A DNA stretch of 64,000 bases from Deltaproteobacteria bacterium (lineage in GTDB: Bacteria > Myxococcota_A > Polyangia > Fen-1088): positions 1 through 64,000 of the forward strand of contig JANRKS010000028.1 in the NCBI GenBank assembly GCA_033763315.1, read 5' to 3'. Both the position numbers and the translations under genes were made by a program. Positions 52,882 through 64,000 of the stretch are shown here, in pieces. The stretch's first letter is position 1. The number at the start of each line of letters is the position of its first letter. The notes under the pieces are model-generated. The model saw only the letters and a program-made list of their open reading frames with translations. It was not told the DNA's origin and searched no databases.

Positions 52882-53802
52882 ATGACGCACGCCCTGGCGC
52901 CTTACCCTGATCCCGAAAGCCGCGACACAACGACGCGCGGGTTGGCCGACGCGTTGGGCGGCGAGGCCATAACGTATGGCCAAAGCGTCGAGGGACGGCC
53001 TTTGTTGGCCGTGCGCGTGCCGGCACGGGTGGCTGGAGCACCTCGCGTGCTTGTGACCGGCAACATCCATGGTGTGGAGTGGATCTCGTCGCAAGTTGCT
53101 TTAGGCGTGCTGCGCGTGCTGGGCACGCCTGCCGGCGCCCCCTTGCGGGCAAATGCGGAGGTGTGGGTGATTCCGTGCCTGAACCCCGATGGCTACGCGC
53201 GTACGTTTTTGAGCGGTGGCCACGGTTCACTCGCGGGCCTCCGCACCAACGCCAATGGAGTGGATCTCAATCGGAATTTTCCGCTGCCGGCCGGGCACGT
53301 TCGAAAGCGGTTGCCCGGGGCCGGCTCAAGCACACCCGGCAAAGCCACGTACGTGGGGACGGGGCCGCTGAGCGAACCTGAGAGCGAGGCGTTGGATCGG
53401 CTGCTGCACGACCAACAATTTCACGCTGGCATCAATGGCCACAGTTTCATGGGCAAGGTGATCCCCGCCCGCGCGCTGCGCGCAAAGGAAGCATCCGTTT
53501 ACAAAGGCCTGGCGCGCGCGTTGGCGAAGGCGCAAGGCGCGTTTCGTTATGGGCGTCTGGCAAGCAACTGGATTGATACGTTCACCGGCGAGCTTGAAGA
53601 TCACCAACATCACCACCACCGCATGTGGGCGGCGTGCTTAGAAACATTCACGTTCGGCGCAAGCGTGCGGCAACACTTGCGTGCGCCAAGTTTGTTTTGG
53701 CGTTTTAACCCGCACGATGTGCAGCGCTGGTGTAACAATGACGTGCCGGCTGTGGCGGCGTTTTTGTTGGCCGCGCTCAAGCAACCGCGGCCCGCGGGGT
53801 GA
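52882..53802 (+). CDS. M14 family zinc carboxypeptidase
   Basis: [31 protein letters not shown] and E(T) motifs. Confidence 0.9.
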
Positions 53803-53873
53803 ATTCACCTCCCCCGTTAGGAGCGAAGGGGCCAAAGGGAGAGGGGACACCCGGAGGCGTTAGGTTCCGGTGG

Positions 53874-54368
53874 CTATGGCGTGGCGGGCGCGTTGGCTCG
53901 GGGCGGCTGTGGCAGCCAGCGGTTACGTGAACGGGGAACACGCGGCGGCAAGGGGTAAAGTGAGCGGCACTCGTGCACCGTGTGGTAGCCATAGGCCGCC
54001 GATGCGGCGGTGACGGCAGCCAACACCAAGGCGCCAACGCCGAGCGTGATGGCGGCGTTGGCGCCGGTGTGATCAGGCGCGGGATCCCAACTCGGTTGCA
54101 CCGCATTCGTGTCACTCGAACGCGCGAGGAAACCAATTCCCGTTAAAAGGAGGCCGAATCCGCCAACGCCCGCGGCGCCCACGGTATCGAGCACGGGCGC
54201 GGCCATGCGCCTCGTGCATGGCGCGGTGGCTTGAGGAACGAGCGGTGGGGGTTCCTCATGGCGCACCGGCGGGGGGACAACCGCCAAGAAGCTGCAACCG
54301 GGTTGCCAAACAAGCAAACCAGACAACACAGCGGTCAAGACACCTCGAGTGTTAGCGGGCTTGTACAT
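53874..54368 (-). CDS. Putative lipoprotein with two hydrophobic segments
   Basis: Signal ending QPGC-SF; C..APVLD, S(AA)YGY...C pattern; SD GAGGTG. Confidence 0.7.
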   Translation of the reverse strand: MYKPANTRGVLTAVLSGLLVWQPGCSFLAVVPPPVRHEEPPPLVPQATAPCTRRMAAPVLDTVGAAGVGGFGLLLTGIGFLARSSDTNAVQPSWDPAPDHTGANAAITLGVGALVLAAVTAASAAYGYHTVHECRSLYPLPPRVPRSRNRWLPQPPRANAPATP

Positions 54369-54747
54369 CGCACCTCGATGGAACGTACCTGAGCGACACG
54401 GCGATCGCGTCGGCGCTGAACCTCAGATTGTTTTCATTCGGTTGCTGGAGAGTCTCCGCTCTATAGGGAGACAGGTAACAAGTTTGCAGCTCTTCGTTCC
54501 CCTCGAAGCCGTCGATGAGTTGCAGCAGTCGCAGGCACAGGGGACGACAAACGCAATCGATCTCGTCCTGTTTACAGCCTGCGGAAGCACCGTCGCGCTT
54601 ACAGTCCGCGATCAGGCGCTGCAAATCCTCGTCTGGGGCATTCACGTAGACAGTCTGTTGGATGGGCGGGCAAGGCTCATCACACGCGGCTGAGCCAGTG
54701 AACAGCCACGCCAAAAACACGACCCGGGGCAAACGCAATTGCAGCAT
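54352..54747 (-). CDS. Small Cys-rich lipoprotein, paralog of the N-domain of the upstream ferritin-like protein
   Basis: Lipobox SAAC followed by 8 further Cys; ATG overlaps the upstream stop (TGATG). Confidence 0.75.
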   Translation of the reverse strand: MLQLRLPRVVFLAWLFTGSAACDEPCPPIQQTVYVNAPDEDLQRLIADCKRDGASAGCKQDEIDCVCRPLCLRLLQLIDGFEGNEELQTCYLSPYRAETLQQPNENNLRFSADAIAVSLRYVPSRCDVQAR

Positions 54748-55688
54748 CACGCGAGATCCTCTGCCAGGTGCTGCAAGATCAACCGGGTGTTTTCACGGCA
54801 CGGGAATCCCAACTGCGTACGCACGTACTCTGGGAGGGACCGCGCGTGCGCCAACCGTCGTAGCTCTCGGGCGCCCGCCTGGGCCACGCCCGCGCGTTGC
54901 CGCGGCGACAACTGCGGCAAAGCCCATGAACGTATCGCACGCGCCAAGGTGGCGTGGCGAAGCTCGTCTGGTGCAATGCTTGACATGGCCGCACGTACGC
55001 GCGTGTCGCCGGCAACCGCGCCCTGGTGTGCGGCCACCAAAGCGCCGAAGCTTTCACGCACGCAGCCTTCCACTTCATTGGCGCGAGCGAGTTGCGCGAG
55101 ACTGGGTAGACGAGGCTCAGCGGGGCAGCGAGGCACACCTGGCTCAATGCCATGCGATCGAACGATGGCACGCAGAGCGCGCGCATGACGGATCTCGTCG
55201 CGAGCCGCGGCGCGCGCCGCCTCCACAAGCTCAAGTGGCGCCTCGTGATGGCGCAGCTGGCGGGCCAACCGCCGGAAAGCGGGCACTGAGGCAGCTTCGA
55301 GTTGCGACATCCGCGCCAGCCACTGAGCCACTGGGGGCCCCGCTTTGCCATCGGCAAAACGCAGCCGAGACGGGCGACGACCTCCAGTACAACTCGGCTC
55401 GCTACCGACGTGCACGCGCAGGTATCCGTCTTTATCGCTATGCAATTCGCAATGCACAATTGCGTAAGCATTGCTCACGAACTCACACAGAGGCCGGCAA
55501 TCAGGATTCACGGGGCGCCGGCACGCCTGCACAAGCGGCGCGATCGATTCGTCTGTCTCGCGGATCAAATACAAGCGGTCATCAGGCGGGCAGTCACACC
55601 CGCCTAACCCGATCAAGGGCACACCGGACGCGATGAGGCTGCGGAGGATGTTGTTAAACCAGCGGCGCGACGAAATCTCTTCGAGCAT
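54747..55688 (-). CDS. Ferritin-like di-iron domain lipoprotein with Cys-rich N-domain and GRRP motif
   Basis: SRRWF...LGGC signal; LEAASVPAF, DEIRH, NEVEGCVRE and DELRH ligands; SD GAGGTG before ATG 55688. Confidence 0.85.
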   Translation of the reverse strand: MLEEISSRRWFNNILRSLIASGVPLIGLGGCDCPPDDRLYLIRETDESIAPLVQACRRPVNPDCRPLCEFVSNAYAIVHCELHSDKDGYLRVHVGSEPSCTGGRRPSRLRFADGKAGPPVAQWLARMSQLEAASVPAFRRLARQLRHHEAPLELVEAARAAARDEIRHARALRAIVRSHGIEPGVPRCPAEPRLPSLAQLARANEVEGCVRESFGALVAAHQGAVAGDTRVRAAMSSIAPDELRHATLARAIRSWALPQLSPRQRAGVAQAGARELRRLAHARSLPEYVRTQLGFPCRENTRLILQHLAEDLA

Positions 55689-55713
55689 AGGCACCTCGTG
55701 CCTTTGACTCTGC

Positions 55714-55730
55714 AGCAAAGGCTGGGCCAA
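55714..55730 (-). promoter_or_regulatory. Sigma54 (-24/-12) promoter of the ferritin-like lipoprotein operon
   Basis: Minus strand TTGGCCC-AGCCT-TTGCT with GG-N10-GC spacing, 25 bp upstream of ATG 55688. Confidence 0.62.
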
Positions 55731-55928
55731 TTGCAAAGGCGGGCGTTCTGACGAACGGCAGCCGTTTTCGGAGCCCGAGACGGTGACATTGGTGTCGCGG
55801 TTACGTCGGCCGCGCGTGATTGACGAGATCAAGGGCCAGCATTTCTCACGCACGGGCGAACTCCTTCGCATCCACAGCGACGCCCCTGCGTTCTCAGATG
55901 CAATCGCACAGGCAACAGGCCGCCCCTT

Positions 55929-57155
55929 TCATTCTGGGGGCACCCCGGCGTTAGCGGCCAAGCCCTGATCACAGTGCCGATTCACGGCGTTCGCAATTTC
56001 CTGCTGGAGATGGTGGTTCAGCAGAGGGTGCAGGGGCAAGTACACAGTGTTGGGTAACCAGGCCGCGGCTTCGATTGGTTTTGCACCAGGGTGTTGAGCG
56101 GGAGAAGGCGCCACCACCAGGCGCGACGCACGCGACGTGGCGTCGTATCCCGCTGCGCGCAACGTCTCCACCAGTTGCAAAGGGGCGTGACAACGGATGG
56201 GATAGACCCAGCGTGTTGGAAAATTTGCGGCAGCACCAACCAGACAATCCATACGAAGCGTCCGGCGATATTCATCGGCAAGCTTTTGCTTCCATCCCAA
56301 CTTCGTCCCTCCTTTTGAAGTCAAGCGTTGTCGTAGAAACTTTGTGAGGGCGTCTGATGGCCGGCATCGCATCCGAGCAAAGAGGTTCTCGCCGGCAAAC
56401 CCCTGAGAGGAAAGGTTCAACAGTTTTTCCAAATCGGTGCCAACAAGCCGGCACGCAACACCTGTGGCAGAAAAAGCAAAGCCGCTTCCCAACAGTTTCA
56501 AAATCGCGAGGTCGGTGAGCGCTCGGGCATACGCGGCGCGTGACTGCTGCGGGAAAGTGGACTCAACCTCCTGTGTGGCCAACGCCAAATCCGGATCACG
56601 AAAAAGCACCAAGGCCCCGCCGGCCGCGGTGCGGGTCTTAATCTTGCCGAAGCTAAAGAACGATACGTCCGCCGCAGGATCGGCAACGGGCACATCGGCG
56701 TTATAGCTTTGTGCAACGTCTTCCCACAGCGGCAGGCTGTTCTGCCGACAAACAGCACCAATAGCCTCTAGCCTGGCCTTAGAACCGAAAAGATGCGTCA
56801 CCATCACCGCACGGGTTCGAGGCGTAATTTGCCGAGCCACTTGCTCAGCCGTGGGTGCAAGAGTATTGCAGGGAACATCTAGCGGAACGGCGACCAGGCC
56901 GTGCTCCTTGATGATCCGCAACATGTCGGCAATCGTAATTGCGGACATGAGAATTTCGCTTCCGGGTGCCCAGTCCATGGCAGTGAGGAGCGCATCAAAA
57001 GCTGTTCGAACAGACAGACTGAGGAAACCACAGCGGCCCGCAGCGATGACGGGGTCGGACCAAACACGGGATCTTCCGGACCTTGGATCGAGGCAACCAA
57101 ACCCCGCCCGCAGCACATTTGCCCATTCGATGTCGACGATGCCACGGGGAATCAC
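55929..57155 (-). CDS. DegT/DnrJ/EryC1/StrS family PLP aminotransferase
   Basis: ITPRTRAVMVTHLFG, WEDVAQS and SFFSFGKIKT motifs; GTG start at 57155 is inferred. Confidence 0.85.
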   Translation of the reverse strand: MIPRGIVDIEWANVLRAGFGCLDPRSGRSRVWSDPVIAAGRCGFLSLSVRTAFDALLTAMDWAPGSEILMSAITIADMLRIIKEHGLVAVPLDVPCNTLAPTAEQVARQITPRTRAVMVTHLFGSKARLEAIGAVCRQNSLPLWEDVAQSYNADVPVADPAADVSFFSFGKIKTRTAAGGALVLFRDPDLALATQEVESTFPQQSRAAYARALTDLAILKLLGSGFAFSATGVACRLVGTDLEKLLNLSSQGFAGENLFARMRCRPSDALTKFLRQRLTSKGGTKLGWKQKLADEYRRTLRMDCLVGAAANFPTRWVYPIRCHAPLQLVETLRAAGYDATSRASRLVVAPSPAQHPGAKPIEAAAWLPNTVYLPLHPLLNHHLQQEIANAVNRHCDQGLAANAGVPPE

Positions 57156-60439: not shown

Positions 60440-63400
60440 CTATGCTCCGTCCTCCACCTTTGGCACAACCTTCGCCTTGCGCATCGGCTTCCACAAGCCT
60501 TGTGACAAGAAGGCAGCCCACACCCAGCGGCTCCAGCGCAACAACGCAAGCGCAAGCCACAACGCCCAGGCCATCATGGCGATGCGGTAGACGAACAGCG
60601 GCACCGAGATCACGAGAGGCTGCGGCAACGTTGCCAAAGCTTGGTCGCTATACCAACGCAACAGCGTTTCATCTGAGCCGTTGCCCATGACCTGCATATC
60701 AGGCGATTCGAGCAAACCGGCACGAATGGCAGCGAACACCAAGACGGCGGCGATGCCTGTCCATAACACAAACGTAAGCTGCGTGAAGTTATAGGCCCAC
60801 GCCCGCGCTGGTCTGCGAATGCGCAAGCGCCAACCAAGCAACAAGAAGAACCCGCTCACGAATGCCACCGCGGGAAGTCCCACTTGGACAAGACCTAAGC
60901 CTAAAAGGGCCCAGTCCAACATTGATAAGGGAGACAACTTCGTGCGCGCCAATACATAGCCTAGCGCCACGAGCACCAGCAGGTAGCTCCAGAAGAAGAC
61001 CGCGGGGCCAAGCAATGGACCGGCCGTCCACAACACCCACCGTCCGGCGGAGCGCAACTGCACAACCGTGGATGCATTCGTGCTCTTCACTCCAAGGTTC
61101 ACCGCGGCGGGTTTGAAAGCGAACGCATGGCCTGCGGGATAACGCCAATCCATAACGAGGCTGTTTGCGCCAGGCACCAACGTTAACGTCACTTGCGTGG
61201 CATGCTGCGTGCTGGAGCTGCGTACGGGTGTTGAGGTGCCATTGATGGATAAGGCACTGAGCACGGCGCCTGCAGGCAACGTGATCACGTGCTCGCGGCC
61301 ACGGCTTGTGCGGCTTTGCCATTGCAAATTCACTTGCGTGCTGCGCGGCCCTGGTGAGTAGGTGGCGCTGCTGTTGTCGATCGTTAACGTTTGCCCTTCA
61401 ACGCCGCTTGGCCGTGTGATCGCAAGGGATACAGATTCATTCGGCCACGGACGCCACAACCACATACGCTGCGCATCCGTGTTGCCTTCACCGCGAAGCG
61501 TGGGGATGCCCTGCACATCAACGTGCCACATCGGCGCCGCCGCCACCTGCCACTCTTCAACAAAAACGCGATCCGCCGAAGGTGCTTTTAACGTCAGTGC
61601 CAATTGTTGCGATAATGTCGCGTCCCACGTTGCCGAGGCCGTGCCTGGGCTCAAGTTTAGTGCCACAGCACGCCCATTGGTTGCCAAGACCACACCCGCA
61701 CTTGTGACCGATTCACCTGGCAACAGGGGGATGTCGGCCAAAACGGGCGCGATGCTTTCGCCGAGACGTTCAACCGTCGTGTGAGTGGTCCACCGCAACC
61801 CTAGCGTGATTTCACGGCGTACCAGCAGCAACGGCACCACGCCATCGGCGCCTGCTGCATCTTTGCCTTTGCTTTCGGCGGCCGCAACAACGCGGGTGAA
61901 TTGCAGCGTTTCACTGGCTTGTCCATCCGTTCGCAGCCCCTCAAGCTGCACGCCTTGCAGTCGCGCGCGGGTGAACTTTGGTATCACAGGCAAGGTCAGC
62001 GACAGCGATTCTTTGGCGGGGAAGGCGCCCTGCATTTCAATGACGTTGGCCCCCTCGTTGACGACCGCCCACAACACACCTTTATCATCACGCGACAAAG
62101 CCACGGCCGCTTGGTTGTTCACGCGCACCTGCGATGGCAGCCAGCCATCGGGTTGACCGGGCAACGCCACAGCGGCACGGGCCAGGGCTGACACCGTAAA
62201 GCGCAGCTTCAACAACTGTGCTGAGGCATCCACCTGCAACTCATCCACTGTGGCGCAGTGAGGGCTGCAAGTTGGTGGGCGCACCAGGCGTTGTTTGAGG
62301 GTTTCTAGAACGTCCGCTGGCGGCGCCACCGGCGCGGGCTCGTCTGCAAGAGCCCGAGAGGGCACAAGTGCAAGCAAGATGAAGGGCATTGCGATCGCGA
62401 CCGAGGCCAGACTTAACCGGTGGCGCTTGAACATAAGGAAGGCAAGCGCCGCCAGGAGCACAACACGCAAGATCGCGAGGAAACTTGTGAGCCACGGAGG
62501 CAGTAGCCAAAGCGAAAGGCTTTGATCCGCCTGAACGGGACCGTTATAGGAGAAGCTGATGGTGTCCCACTGCCATGATGGAATGCCGGGCCCCGTTTGG
62601 ACGACGACGGACTTGTCCCAGACGGCGAGGTTTTGCGTCGTCTGCGCATTTCTCTTTGAGAATGAATCCCTCTTTCGGCCATAGAGGCCATGGAGGGAGT
62701 TCGCCGCAGGTGCGCCTGCCCCGACGCTTTCCACAACGCGACCCTCAACCGATTCTTCGATTTCCTCAGGCTCGGCCGCCGGCGCGTCGGCCTGCATTTT
62801 TGCATACTGTTGCACCGCCGCCGGCGCCGGCGCGGCCCCAGGCATGGGGATTGACCAACCACCACTTCGAGTGGCTGCGGGATGCAAAGCCAAACGCAGG
62901 TCTTGAGCGGCAAACGGCACGAAGATAAACAGCCAAACCGCCCAACTGCCGAGGCGCAAAACGCGAGGCACCCACGCCAGTTTTCCCGGCGGAACCAAGC
63001 GCAGCAATGCCTCGGCTATGACAACAGCCAGCCACACCCAGGCGGGGGCATCGCCTTCATTGAGGCTCAGCAGCAAAGCCGCAAATGCCACGGCGCCCAC
63101 GCGGTAGCCATAAAGGCGTTGCACGCTCACGGCCACGATCAACAACAAGAACAGATCCAGTAGCGACCACGCCTGTACCCAGCTGCCGTTGACGTGATCG
63201 GCCCCTGCGCCAAACAATAACTTCCATCCCGGCCCCAGGTGCACTTGCCCGGAGAGCGAATCGAAATCCTGGTGCCACGCCACGGCGGGAATGGTCATGC
63301 CTGTGCGAGGAACGCGGCTGTCGGCTTCAATGCGCGCGTTCTGCACGCGGATCTCTGCGCCCCACAGGCCGCCACTTTGTTTGTTATCACCGAGCGTTGT

Positions 63401-64000
63401 GATGAACTGGTCTTCGCCATTGACCGATAGGCGCCCCAGTTGCGCGGGTGGTTGCATCGACAGGCGCCAACTGCGGGACAGCGTGCCGTTGATGTTGTCG
63501 CGCACGGTGAACGCGGCGCCATCGAAGTCGAGCCATAGCTGCCGCGACAGTGACAACCGATCTGGCAACGGTGGTTCGTTGCCACGCTGATGTTGTACAA
63601 GCTTAAGCGTGGCGCCTGGTTCAACGGCGTAGGTTGGCAGCGCCTTCCACTCATCGGGCAGCGTGGTTTGCTGCGGATCAATCGCAGGCACACCTTCAAT
63701 AGTGACCGAGCGAACCGCGGGAGCCGCTGCAAAAACCCACGCCTCTTCGCCTTCTTTCCATGGACCCTCGGGTGCGGGGCGCACCACGCTCTCAACCTGA
63801 GCCACGTTGCGTGCCACAAGTTCGATCGTCCATTGCCCTGGCCGCACCTGCGTGCGCAAACGCCCATCGGGTTCGATGCGCACCGGCAAGCCGCTGCTGA
63901 GCGACAGCGGCACGAAGCCCTCTGGCAACGCCCGACCCAGCACCAATTCGCGGCTCTTGCCTGACACGGCCAGCGTGACCCGCGTGGTGAGCAACACGGG
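60440..64000 (-). CDS. Large hypothetical membrane protein (5' end off window, more than 1185 aa)
   Basis: Uninterrupted ORF to the window edge, alternating beta-rich soluble regions and two TM clusters. Confidence 0.85.
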   Translation of the reverse strand, partial: PVLLTTRVTLAVSGKSRELVLGRALPEGFVPLSLSSGLPVRIEPDGRLRTQVRPGQWTIELVARNVAQVESVVRPAPEGPWKEGEEAWVFAAAPAVRSVTIEGVPAIDPQQTTLPDEWKALPTYAVEPGATLKLVQHQRGNEPPLPDRLSLSRQLWLDFDGAAFTVRDNINGTLSRSWRLSMQPPAQLGRLSVNGEDQFITTLGDNKQSGGLWGAEIRVQNARIEADSRVPRTGMTIPAVAWHQDFDSLSGQVHLGPGWKLLFGAGADHVNGSWVQAWSLLDLFLLLIVAVSVQRLYGYRVGAVAFAALLLSLNEGDAPAWVWLAVVIAEALLRLVPPGKLAWVPRVLRLGSWAVWLFIFVPFAAQDLRLALHPAATRSGGWSIPMPGAAPAPAAVQQYAKMQADAPAAEPEEIEESVEGRVVESVGAGAPAANSLHGLYGRKRDSFSKRNAQTTQNLAVWDKSVVVQTGPGIPSWQWDTISFSYNGPVQADQSLSLWLLPPWLTSFLAILRVVLLAALAFLMFKRHRLSLASVAIAMPFILLALVPSRALADEPAPVAPPADVLETLKQRLVRPPTCSPHCATVDELQVDASAQLLKLRFTVSALARAAVALPGQPDGWLPSQVRVNNQAAVALSRDDKGVLWAVVNEGANVIEMQGAFPAKESLSLTLPVIPKFTRARLQGVQLEGLRTDGQASETLQFTRVVAAAESKGKDAAGADGVVPLLLVRREITLGLRWTTHTTVERLGESIAPVLADIPLLPGESVTSAGVVLATNGRAVALNLSPGTASATWDATLSQQLALTLKAPSADRVFVEEWQVAAAPMWHVDVQGIPTLRGEGNTDAQRMWLWRPWPNESVSLAITRPSGVEGQTLTIDNSSATYSPGPRSTQVNLQWQSRTSRGREHVITLPAGAVLSALSINGTSTPVRSSSTQHATQVTLTLVPGANSLVMDWRYPAGHAFAFKPAAVNLGVKSTNASTVVQLRSAGRWVLWTAGPLLGPAVFFWSYLLVLVALGYVLARTKLSPLSMLDWALLGLGLVQVGLPAVAFVSGFFLLLGWRLRIRRPARAWAYNFTQLTFVLWTGIAAVLVFAAIRAGLLESPDMQVMGNGSDETLLRWYSDQALATLPQPLVISVPLFVYRIAMMAWALWLALALLRWSRWVWAAFLSQGLWKPMRKAKVVPKVEDGA

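Follow-up and report, generated by a model that had tools for sequence, protein, structure and literature searches.

A predicted sigma-54-driven lipoprotein cassette built around a ferritin-like di-iron protein with a putative lipid anchor outside the cytoplasm

A stretch of 64,000 nucleotides from a Deltaproteobacteria bacterium of the Polyangia (contig JANRKS010000028.1, positions 1 to 64,000; referred to as the window) contains three consecutive open reading frames (ORFs) on the minus strand, which were read from the sequence between positions 53874 and 55800 and are termed A, B and C. Protein A is a member of the ferritin-like superfamily with a complete set of di-metal ligands; all three proteins are predicted lipoproteins, and their genes appear to be controlled by a sigma-54-dependent promoter with an upstream palindromic enhancer. 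The genes and the segments of protein A are arranged as follows.

55688-54747, minus strand: gene A, 313 amino acids (aa), ATG start at 55688
55697-55694, minus strand: Shine-Dalgarno sequence GAGG, 5 nucleotides (nt) ahead of the gene A ATG, read directly from the sequence
A residues 7-11: SRRWF
55598-55596, minus strand: codon of Cys31 in the LGGC lipobox, at the end of a long (30 aa) predicted signal peptide
55595-55389, minus strand: N-domain of A, residues 32-100, predicted to be disulfide-rich, with a conserved H79-C80-E81-x-H83...H93 patch
55385-55371, minus strand: GGRRP junction, with GRRP as residues 103-106
55343-54750, minus strand: ferritin-like di-iron domain of A, residues 116-313, with the motifs EAAS (131-134), DEIRH (164-168), EGCVRE (207-212) and DELRH (241-245)
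54750-54352, minus strand: gene B, 132 aa, predicted lipoprotein and stand-alone paralogue of the A N-domain
54368-53874, minus strand: gene C, 164 aa

The original prediction, made from the DNA letters, had described three overlapping genes and the motifs SRRWF, LGGC, GRRP, EAAS, DEIRH, EGCVRE and DELRH in protein A. All of these were recovered, the genes occupying 53874-55688 with overlapping stops and starts. Gene B begins with a GTG, or with the adjoining ATG, inside the string GTGATG which also holds the TGA stop codon of gene A, and gene C overlaps gene B by 17 nt, provided that the ATG is the start of C. From these overlaps the three genes are predicted to form one translationally coupled unit.

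The AlphaFold2 model of protein A (predicted local distance difference test score, pLDDT, 86.4; predicted template modelling score, pTM, 0.71) shows two parts, a small domain of the order beta-alpha-alpha-beta-beta (residues 35-100) and a long bundle of helices (residues 116-313). Structural alignment places the bundle closest to di-iron enzymes, namely the PaaC-like protein 4mud (VIA Z 15.7), PaaC itself (15.3), cyanobacterial aldehyde-deformylating oxygenase (14.8), R2lox (14.0) and MMOH (13.3), the last representing the soluble methane/toluene monooxygenase hydroxylases, at root-mean-square deviations of 2.6-3.3 Å over 175-185 residues. Lower Z scores of 10-12 were obtained for ferritins, Dps, symerythrin and Mn catalase. 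The metal ligands E131, E165, H168, E207 (together with E212), E242 and H245 are invariant in 30 close and in 55 diverse sequences. Altogether, C80, G103, R104, E131, F138, E165, H168, N204, E207, E212, Q222, E242, H245, W255, G294 and P296 are invariant in the 55 diverse members, at least 90% of which also retain the lipobox C31 as well as C64, R105 and C209. The four-helix di-iron domain proposed earlier is therefore borne out by its full ligand set, by the confidence of the model and by the Z scores of 15.7-14.0 to enzymes; fold and E/ExxH/E/ExxH ligand pattern were both found, which places A in the ferritin-like superfamily. The complete di-metal site, the conserved second-shell residues and the neighbouring Cys209 point to an enzyme rather than a storage protein.

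This membership is barely visible at the level of the primary structure. No Pfam model reaches its gathering threshold with A: Ferritin_2 scores 13.3 bits compared with 24.7 needed, AurF 11.5 compared with 29.6 and Rubrerythrin 12.6 compared with 22.8, and the same holds for the other named clan families tested, COQ7 and DUF455. No NCBIfam model matches A, and Pfam searches with the 55 diverse members yielded weak matches only (best E-value 2.9e-5). A profile search of the PDB with A matched only de novo designed 'ExxH' helices and noise, and Foldseek with the whole A model returned no hit at an E-value of 0.001 or lower, the best being 5ux2_B at 1.3e-3.

The family of A is very large. A word-index search recovered at least 867 matches at an E-value of 0.001 among the best 8,000 candidates by common words, and an exhaustive search found 7,810 representatives of 50%-identity clusters at E-values up to 0.001, 4,193 of them up to 1e-10. 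The A profile was found in 119 of 401 sampled genomes of the phylum (E-value up to 1e-20), often in five or more copies each. Relatives come from Corallococcus, Pyxidicoccus, Hyalangium, Paraliomyxa and metagenome-assembled genomes of Polyangia, and are annotated in their sources as 'hypothetical', 'lipoprotein' or 'ferritin-like domain-containing protein'; in the Atlas, the A homologue P0022 led to unnamed Myxococcota clusters only. The part common to the family comprises residues ~98-313, and the N-terminal parts vary. A full-text literature search, seen as titles and the openings of abstracts, brought up no paper on the family. We conclude that the A family is very large and has neither a Pfam or NCBIfam model nor a solved relative. 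The locus had been put forward as a candidate new system; this stands in so far as the family is uncharacterised, with no named family, solved relative or paper found, and fails in respect of rarity, the family being huge and generically annotated. Two arrangements of family members elsewhere were also seen. In one locus (L015, G326:C5:175657-177740) two full-length members with Cys-rich N-domains lie in tandem, with the word GCGACATTCGTGTCCG ahead of one of them. In another (L011, G016:C41:56910-57544) a member is split into two adjoining ORFs matching profile positions 90-211 and 208-301, and it may be a frameshifted or decaying copy.

Comparison with characterised proteins sets A apart from each of them. 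With the PaaA/PaaC-type enzymes (phenylacetyl-CoA epoxidase) it shares the E / ExxH / E / ExxH ligand pattern, but the sequence identity amounts to only 10-20%. A also differs from these enzymes in its predicted export and lipid anchor, the Cys-rich N-domain and the GGRRP junction, as well as in the additional invariant E212 and the near-invariant Cys209 in helix 3, and, unlike in PaaA/PaaC-type systems, no reductase or ferredoxin partner gene is present in the cassette. Rubrerythrin, symerythrin and Mn catalase are peroxide-reactive four-helix di-metal proteins, with which A has the di-metal four-helix site in common (VIA Z 12.2 to symerythrin and 10.3 to Mn catalase). In rubrerythrin a small Cys-rich redox domain is fused to the bundle, which resembles the combination of domains in A, and Rubrerythrin is the most frequent weak Pfam match of the family (13 of 55 members, best E-value 1e-4, below threshold). 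However, A has a longer bundle, lacks the CxxC pairs of rubredoxin and is predicted to be extracytoplasmic. Ferritin_2 (PF13668) and DUF2202-type lipoproteins are exported ferritin-like families which often occur in envelope redox or metal loci. A would likewise carry its ferritin-like domain outside the cytoplasm, but Ferritin_2 is matched below threshold by only 7 of the 55 members and DUF2202 is not among the matches; moreover, the export of A, compared with that of other exported ferritin-like families, probably follows the general secretory route ending at signal peptidase II (Sec/SPII) rather than the twin-arginine translocation (Tat) route.

Modelled alone, the N-domain of A reaches a pLDDT of 88.8. 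It contains six conserved cysteines and probably holds three disulfides; their pairing and the geometry of the His patch are derived from sequence and secondary structure alone. No solved relative of the N-domain was recognisable (best VIA Z 4.5, best Foldseek E-value 0.38), which does not thereby prove a new fold. A relative is nonetheless found within the cassette itself, in the form of protein B. BLASTP of B against A gives an E-value of 2e-4, and a profile built from B sequences alone has the N-termini of A proteins as its next-best matches (2e-4 to 6e-3 among 5,480 ORFs). After removal of the signal peptides, an hhalign comparison of mature B (8 sequences) with the A N-domain (10 sequences) yielded a probability of 96.5% and an E-value of 8.5e-10 over 69 columns. 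The six cysteines correspond in both, and the H79-C80-E81-x-H83...H93 patch is missing from B. As judged from these alignments, B is a paralogue of the A N-domain. As previously proposed, B is a small Cys-rich protein with the mark of a lipoprotein, since a motif of a small residue followed by Cys occurs after a hydrophobic stretch in eight of eight sequences. Single-sequence searches with B found almost nothing, namely three matches in a large protein database and matches in 4 of 41 related genomes.

Protein C likewise carries a G/S-C-S-[FYL] lipobox-like motif after its first hydrophobic segment, in all homologues found, and in addition two Gly/Ala-rich hydrophobic segments, a conserved PSW loop and two more conserved cysteines, in line with the earlier description of a lipoprotein with two hydrophobic segments. 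Its homologues lie in unnamed Myxococcota clusters only (Atlas), and four were found in the large protein database.

The follow-up suggested with the original prediction, the collection of homologues with their neighbouring genes, was carried out on loci gathered from related genomes and metagenomes. Nine A-B loci were obtained (the window, L003, G007, split over L004 and L044, L005, L049, L051, L052, which is cut, L053 and L054), and B directly follows A in all nine with downstream DNA. C follows B in six of eight; L051 and L053 have a convergent gene in its place, and L052 is cut. The expected operon of three lipoproteins thus holds as a three-gene unit in the window, but not as a fixed trio, and from this gene order the conserved core is A-B, with C apparently optional. 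No B- or C-like gene lies downstream in 38 other loci of the family (L002, L006-L013, L015-L043), and the cassette is therefore specific to one subfamily, whose A proteins are at least 39% identical. The order A-B(-C) recurs in other genera with unrelated flanks that are different in every locus, which indicates that the cassette is self-contained.

Upstream of gene A, a -24/-12 site of the sigma-54 type and an inverted repeat as a possible enhancer had been pointed out. Both are present, and a third word lies between them.

55729-55714, minus strand: predicted sigma-54 promoter (-24/-12), TGGCCCAGCCTTTGCT, conserved in orthologous loci
55798-55783, minus strand: predicted palindromic upstream activator site, GCGACACCAATGTCAC, 16 bp; the plus strand reads GTGACATTGGTGTCGC
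55754-55769, minus strand: word GAAAACGGC between enhancer and promoter, inside a 6-1-6 inverted repeat AACGGC-T-GCCGTT

In the promoter word, the GG of the -24 and the GC of the -12 element are 10 nt apart in a TGGC...TTGC context. Words of this kind are at chance level in the window (TGGC-N7-TTGCW, 3 seen compared with 2.2 expected; 37 of 100 shuffles reach 3), but GGC-N7-TTGCT is found 12-29 nt ahead of the start codon in eight of eight distinct A-B-type loci with upstream DNA. The comparison was made after setting aside L054 and L050, in which the upstream end is cut, and the duplicates L056 (of L005) and L055 (of L053). The words in the eight loci are as follows.

Window locus: TGGCCCAGCCTTTGCT
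L003: TGGCCCAGCACTTGCT
L004: AGGCGCCGTTGTTGCT
L005: TGGCACGCCCCTTGCT
L049: AGGCACGGGACTTGCT
L051: TGGCGTGACGCTTGCT
L052: GGGCACGGCTCTTGCT
L053: TGGCTCGCAGCTTGCT

GGC-N7-TTGCT occurs 633 times on both strands of this genome, corresponding to a chance of 0.0025 per 60-nt window, a figure to be read with the reservation that the eight loci are homologous and hence not independent trials. The intergenic DNA around the word is otherwise unalignable between genera. The genome contains one rpoN gene for sigma-54 (a single PF04552 match, E-value 1e-64) and 59 matches to PF00158, 52 of which are strong (E-value up to 8.5e-24) and represent enhancer-binding proteins (EBPs). On the basis of these patterns, the promoter of gene A is predicted to be sigma-54-dependent and to have an upstream palindromic enhancer.

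The leader of the transcript in the window would be ~14 nt long and carry the GAGG. In L005, L049, L051 and L053 just 12-13 nt separate the end of the -12 TTGCT from the ATG of gene A, and the predicted transcripts are therefore leaderless or nearly so. A second perfect word of the type TGGC-N7-TTGCA, TGGCAACCCGGTTGCA, is located within gene C (54293-54308, minus strand); its letters are the codons of the conserved lipobox peptide W-Q-P-G-C, so that the match most likely arises from coding and does not represent a promoter.

The consensus of the palindrome is GCGACA-N4-TGTCRC, and the copy in the window begins 69 nt upstream of the TGG of the -24 element. Five of the eight orthologous loci have an exact GACA-N4-TGTC at a distance of 53-73 nt upstream of the -24 element; L051 has one mismatch (GCGACAGTTCAGTCGC), and L004 and L053 retain the GCGACA half only. 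This genome contains 56 GACA-N4-TGTC palindromes, seven of which are followed within the next 160 nt by TGGC-N7-TTGC, compared with 1.16 expected (Poisson P 2e-4) and with 0-2 in control windows farther downstream. In five related genomes, the composite GACA-N4-TGTC-N50-80-GGC-N7-TTGC has 24 matches compared with none for the reversed control. The association of the palindrome with -24/-12 sites is thus seen well beyond the locus, in agreement with the enhancer function originally suggested. In the literature searched by full text, as far as titles and the openings of abstracts go, the palindrome is not described.

To delineate the genes behind composite promoters, 28 downstream genes were examined, the window's own gene A not being among them. 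Five of the 28 are members of the ferritin-like family, two of these being a 495-aa paralogue encoded on a different contig of this genome and the corresponding orthologue of a sister species, and lipoprotein-type starts were recognised in 10 by a strict lipobox expression and in ~15 by eye. Pfam matches among these genes are few (VWA, PKD, FG-GAP, HTTM, DUF2330, DUF6345). On this pattern, the palindrome appears to mark a sigma-54 regulon of mostly lipoprotein genes which includes ferritin-like paralogues. Among the individual sites, composite promoters in relatives precede a gene for an HTTM-domain membrane protein (L142, G001:C10) and one for a DUF2330 protein (L144, G014:C103); both targets belong to exported or membrane families. 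In this genome, an 823-aa large catalase with Catalase, Catalase-rel and Catalase_C/DJ-1 domains lies behind a composite of GTGACATCGGTGTCGC and TGGCCCGTCGTTTGCT (L130, G000:C7:153188-155801). At L133 (G000:C34:48136-49333), likewise in this genome, the composite promoter lies ahead of two ORFs, the first of 112 aa and without a family, the second of 108 aa and with a weak match to S30AE/HPF, a ribosome hibernation family, at an E-value of 7.6e-4, below threshold.

NtrC-family EBPs provide the general model of dimeric helix-turn-helix activators at sigma-54 promoters, and the predicted regulon resembles theirs in the correctly spaced -24 GG and -12 GC of the cassette promoter, in a dyad site ~70-100 nt upstream and in several promoters sharing one site. 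It differs from the known NtrC-family regulons in that the activator gene adjoins no target and that the targets are mainly lipoproteins without an assigned function. The word between palindrome and promoter may be a further component. A GAAAACGCC-like word, AAAC[GA][CG], recurs in this position, and of 34 spacers separating a palindrome from its -24 site 10 contain it (those of the window, L005, L049, L135, L142, L148, L150, L151, L154 and L155), compared with a mean of 1.4 and a maximum of 6 in shuffled spacers; it may constitute a third regulatory element for a second or architectural factor.

The nearest neighbours of the cassette in the window are unrelated to it. An ORF for a DegT-type aminotransferase-like protein lies on the same strand 240 nt upstream, and a convergent M14 carboxypeptidase gene downstream; farther away are an amidohydrolase, a PhoD-like phosphatase, a transaldolase and a glucose-6-phosphate isomerase-like ORF, the last name being a reading of the ORF listing with no Pfam match behind it. 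A further minus-strand ORF at 60440-63997, at least 1,185 aa long and without a Pfam match at an E-value of 0.001 or lower, is cut by the window end.

Consistent with these data we propose a scenario for the working of the cassette. The sigma-54 promoter would be activated by an EBP dimer bound to the GCGACA-N4-TGTCRC palindrome, ~70 nt ahead of the -24 element, and one EBP signal would thereby switch on the cassette and roughly six further genes, most of them for lipoproteins. Protein A would be exported, most likely by Sec, and become lipid-anchored at Cys31 on the membrane surface outside the cytoplasm. There it would consist of a disulfide-locked alpha/beta domain with a His3/Glu patch and an enzyme-type ferritin-like bundle, whose di-metal carboxylate site would be formed by E131, E165-x-x-H168, E207/E212 and E242-x-x-H245 beside the almost invariant Cys209. 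To our knowledge, the periplasm contains neither NAD(P)H nor ferredoxin. As no NAD(P)H-dependent reductase could reach A there, its chemistry is most likely oxidase-, peroxidase- or ferroxidase-like, and A might use O2 or H2O2 together with a local reductant such as Fe2+, thiols or membrane quinol. Protein B might dock on, or compete for, the site of the N-domain as a partner, regulator or relay, and C might serve as a membrane-embedded accessory protein in part of the clade. Taken as a whole, this reading of an autonomous A-B(-C) envelope cassette, driven by sigma-54 and an EBP, with A as an extracytoplasmic O2- or H2O2-reactive di-metal enzyme, is one that we put forward tentatively, its chances being somewhat short of even.

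Several observations weigh against it. In the structural comparison of the model, the closest neighbours of A are reductase-dependent oxygenases or ligand-binding oxidases, not peroxidases. The signal peptides were judged by motif conservation, and Tat export may apply to those subfamily members which carry RR or KR. No gene for the activator is present in the window or beside four other A-B(-C) loci, and the EBP gene nearest to any regulon site is ~16 kb away. Finally, the catalase orthologues in three of three relatives lack the palindrome and only one has a sigma-54-like word; the idea of an oxidative-stress regulon drawn from the catalase and HPF-like targets is therefore unproven, that label is not established, and as a whole the regulon shows little of a stress or redox character.

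The main rival on function sees in A an oxygenase which modifies a substrate such as a membrane lipid, a fatty acid, a quinone or a protein, including an oxidation of A itself or of B in the manner of ribosomally synthesized and post-translationally modified peptides (RiPPs). It draws on the same structural neighbours, as aldehyde-deformylating oxygenase, PaaA/C, R2lox and MMOH oxidise substrates or bind lipids, and on the membrane tether, which would place the site of A beside lipids; furthermore, B copies the N-domain of A and always follows A, and could take the same docking site as a substrate. However, no electron donor for turnover is evident outside the cytoplasm, and neither a conserved precursor peptide nor a protease, transporter or reductase gene was found near the loci, whose flanks vary. 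B itself, with three probable disulfides, is predicted to fold into a domain and is not a peptide of the leader-core type. A substrate-modifying oxygenase is accordingly regarded as unlikely, if clearly to be reckoned with, and the RiPP-like or partner modification envisaged in the original prediction did not find its expected surroundings.

A question separate from function is whether A reaches its location by Tat, in a folded and metal-loaded state, as its SRRWF suggests and as had been assumed at the outset. The S-R-R-W-F stands 22 residues ahead of the lipobox Cys, and the 30-aa signal peptide is long with a weakly hydrophobic h-region. In farther subfamily members RR (L004, L051, L053), KR (L052, L054, L050) and, elsewhere, RS or RH occur just before the hydrophobic region, the RR of the three former members directly so. 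Against this, the four closest homologues, at 50-70% identity, read LPSWF, PSAWF, RPPWF and CQEWL, the RR being replaced by PS, SA, PP and QE with no RR elsewhere in the N-terminus, so that even orthologues 68-70% identical to A lack it. In contrast, Cys31 after the hydrophobic stretch is invariant in two alignments of A and kept, as mentioned, in the diverse set. Because RR is not conserved and the exported N-domain contains six conserved Cys, which argue for folding after export, the more likely course for A is export by Sec/SPII, with oxidative folding and metal loading taking place afterwards, outside the cytoplasm; the Tat route is rather improbable and the initial assignment to it is not upheld.

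A might also lack catalytic activity and instead bind or store metal in the way of ferritins, Dps or desiccation proteins, as a buffer for iron or another metal at the cell surface. The ferritin-like fold with ferroxidase-type ligands, the His3/Glu patch on the N-domain and the weak Pfam likeness to Rubrerythrin and Ferritin_2 are compatible with such a role, but the bundle is long and of the enzyme type (Z 14-16 to enzymes compared with 10-12 to ferritins and Dps), a lipid-anchored monomer is not obviously able to build a storage shell, and the strict conservation of N204, Q222, W255, Cys209 and GRRP suggests a specific active site, which makes a pure storage function decidedly unlikely. That the promoter-like words are chance matches, with another promoter in use or the genes not forming one operon, can hardly hold, for although the -24/-12 word is not enriched in the window, it is retained in all eight orthologous loci amid otherwise unalignable DNA, its combination with the palindrome is over-represented both across the genome and in relatives, the gene ends overlap, and no sigma-70-like promoter was found in 53600-56000.

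Returning to the proposed O2- or H2O2-reactive enzyme, its most far-reaching form would regard A and its thousands of relatives as a new class of tethered extracytoplasmic di-iron oxidoreductases, which draw on membrane quinol or thiols to reduce O2 or H2O2 on the outward-facing side of the inner membrane, with B as docking partner, redox or metal relay, or substrate, and with one sigma-54 activator recognising GCGACA-N4-TGTCRC. In this full extent the proposal is improbable. If true, the class would in effect give alternative oxidase or rubrerythrin a counterpart in the periplasm.

What is new here is a coherent, huge and unnamed family, a partner apparently paralogous to its N-domain, and a defined, predicted sigma-54 enhancer/promoter regulon. 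The minimal A + B cassette, the promoter/enhancer pair marking presumably co-regulated lipoprotein genes and the list of invariant residues offer handles for further work. Di-iron carboxylate enzymes are textbook cytoplasmic catalysts which depend on reductase partners; judged from the signal peptides, in this very large family a complete di-iron site would be tethered by a lipid anchor outside the cytoplasm. If its chemistry is the reduction of peroxide or O2, or the oxidation of surface lipids or proteins, the family would bear on redox stress or envelope remodelling in predatory, social soil bacteria.

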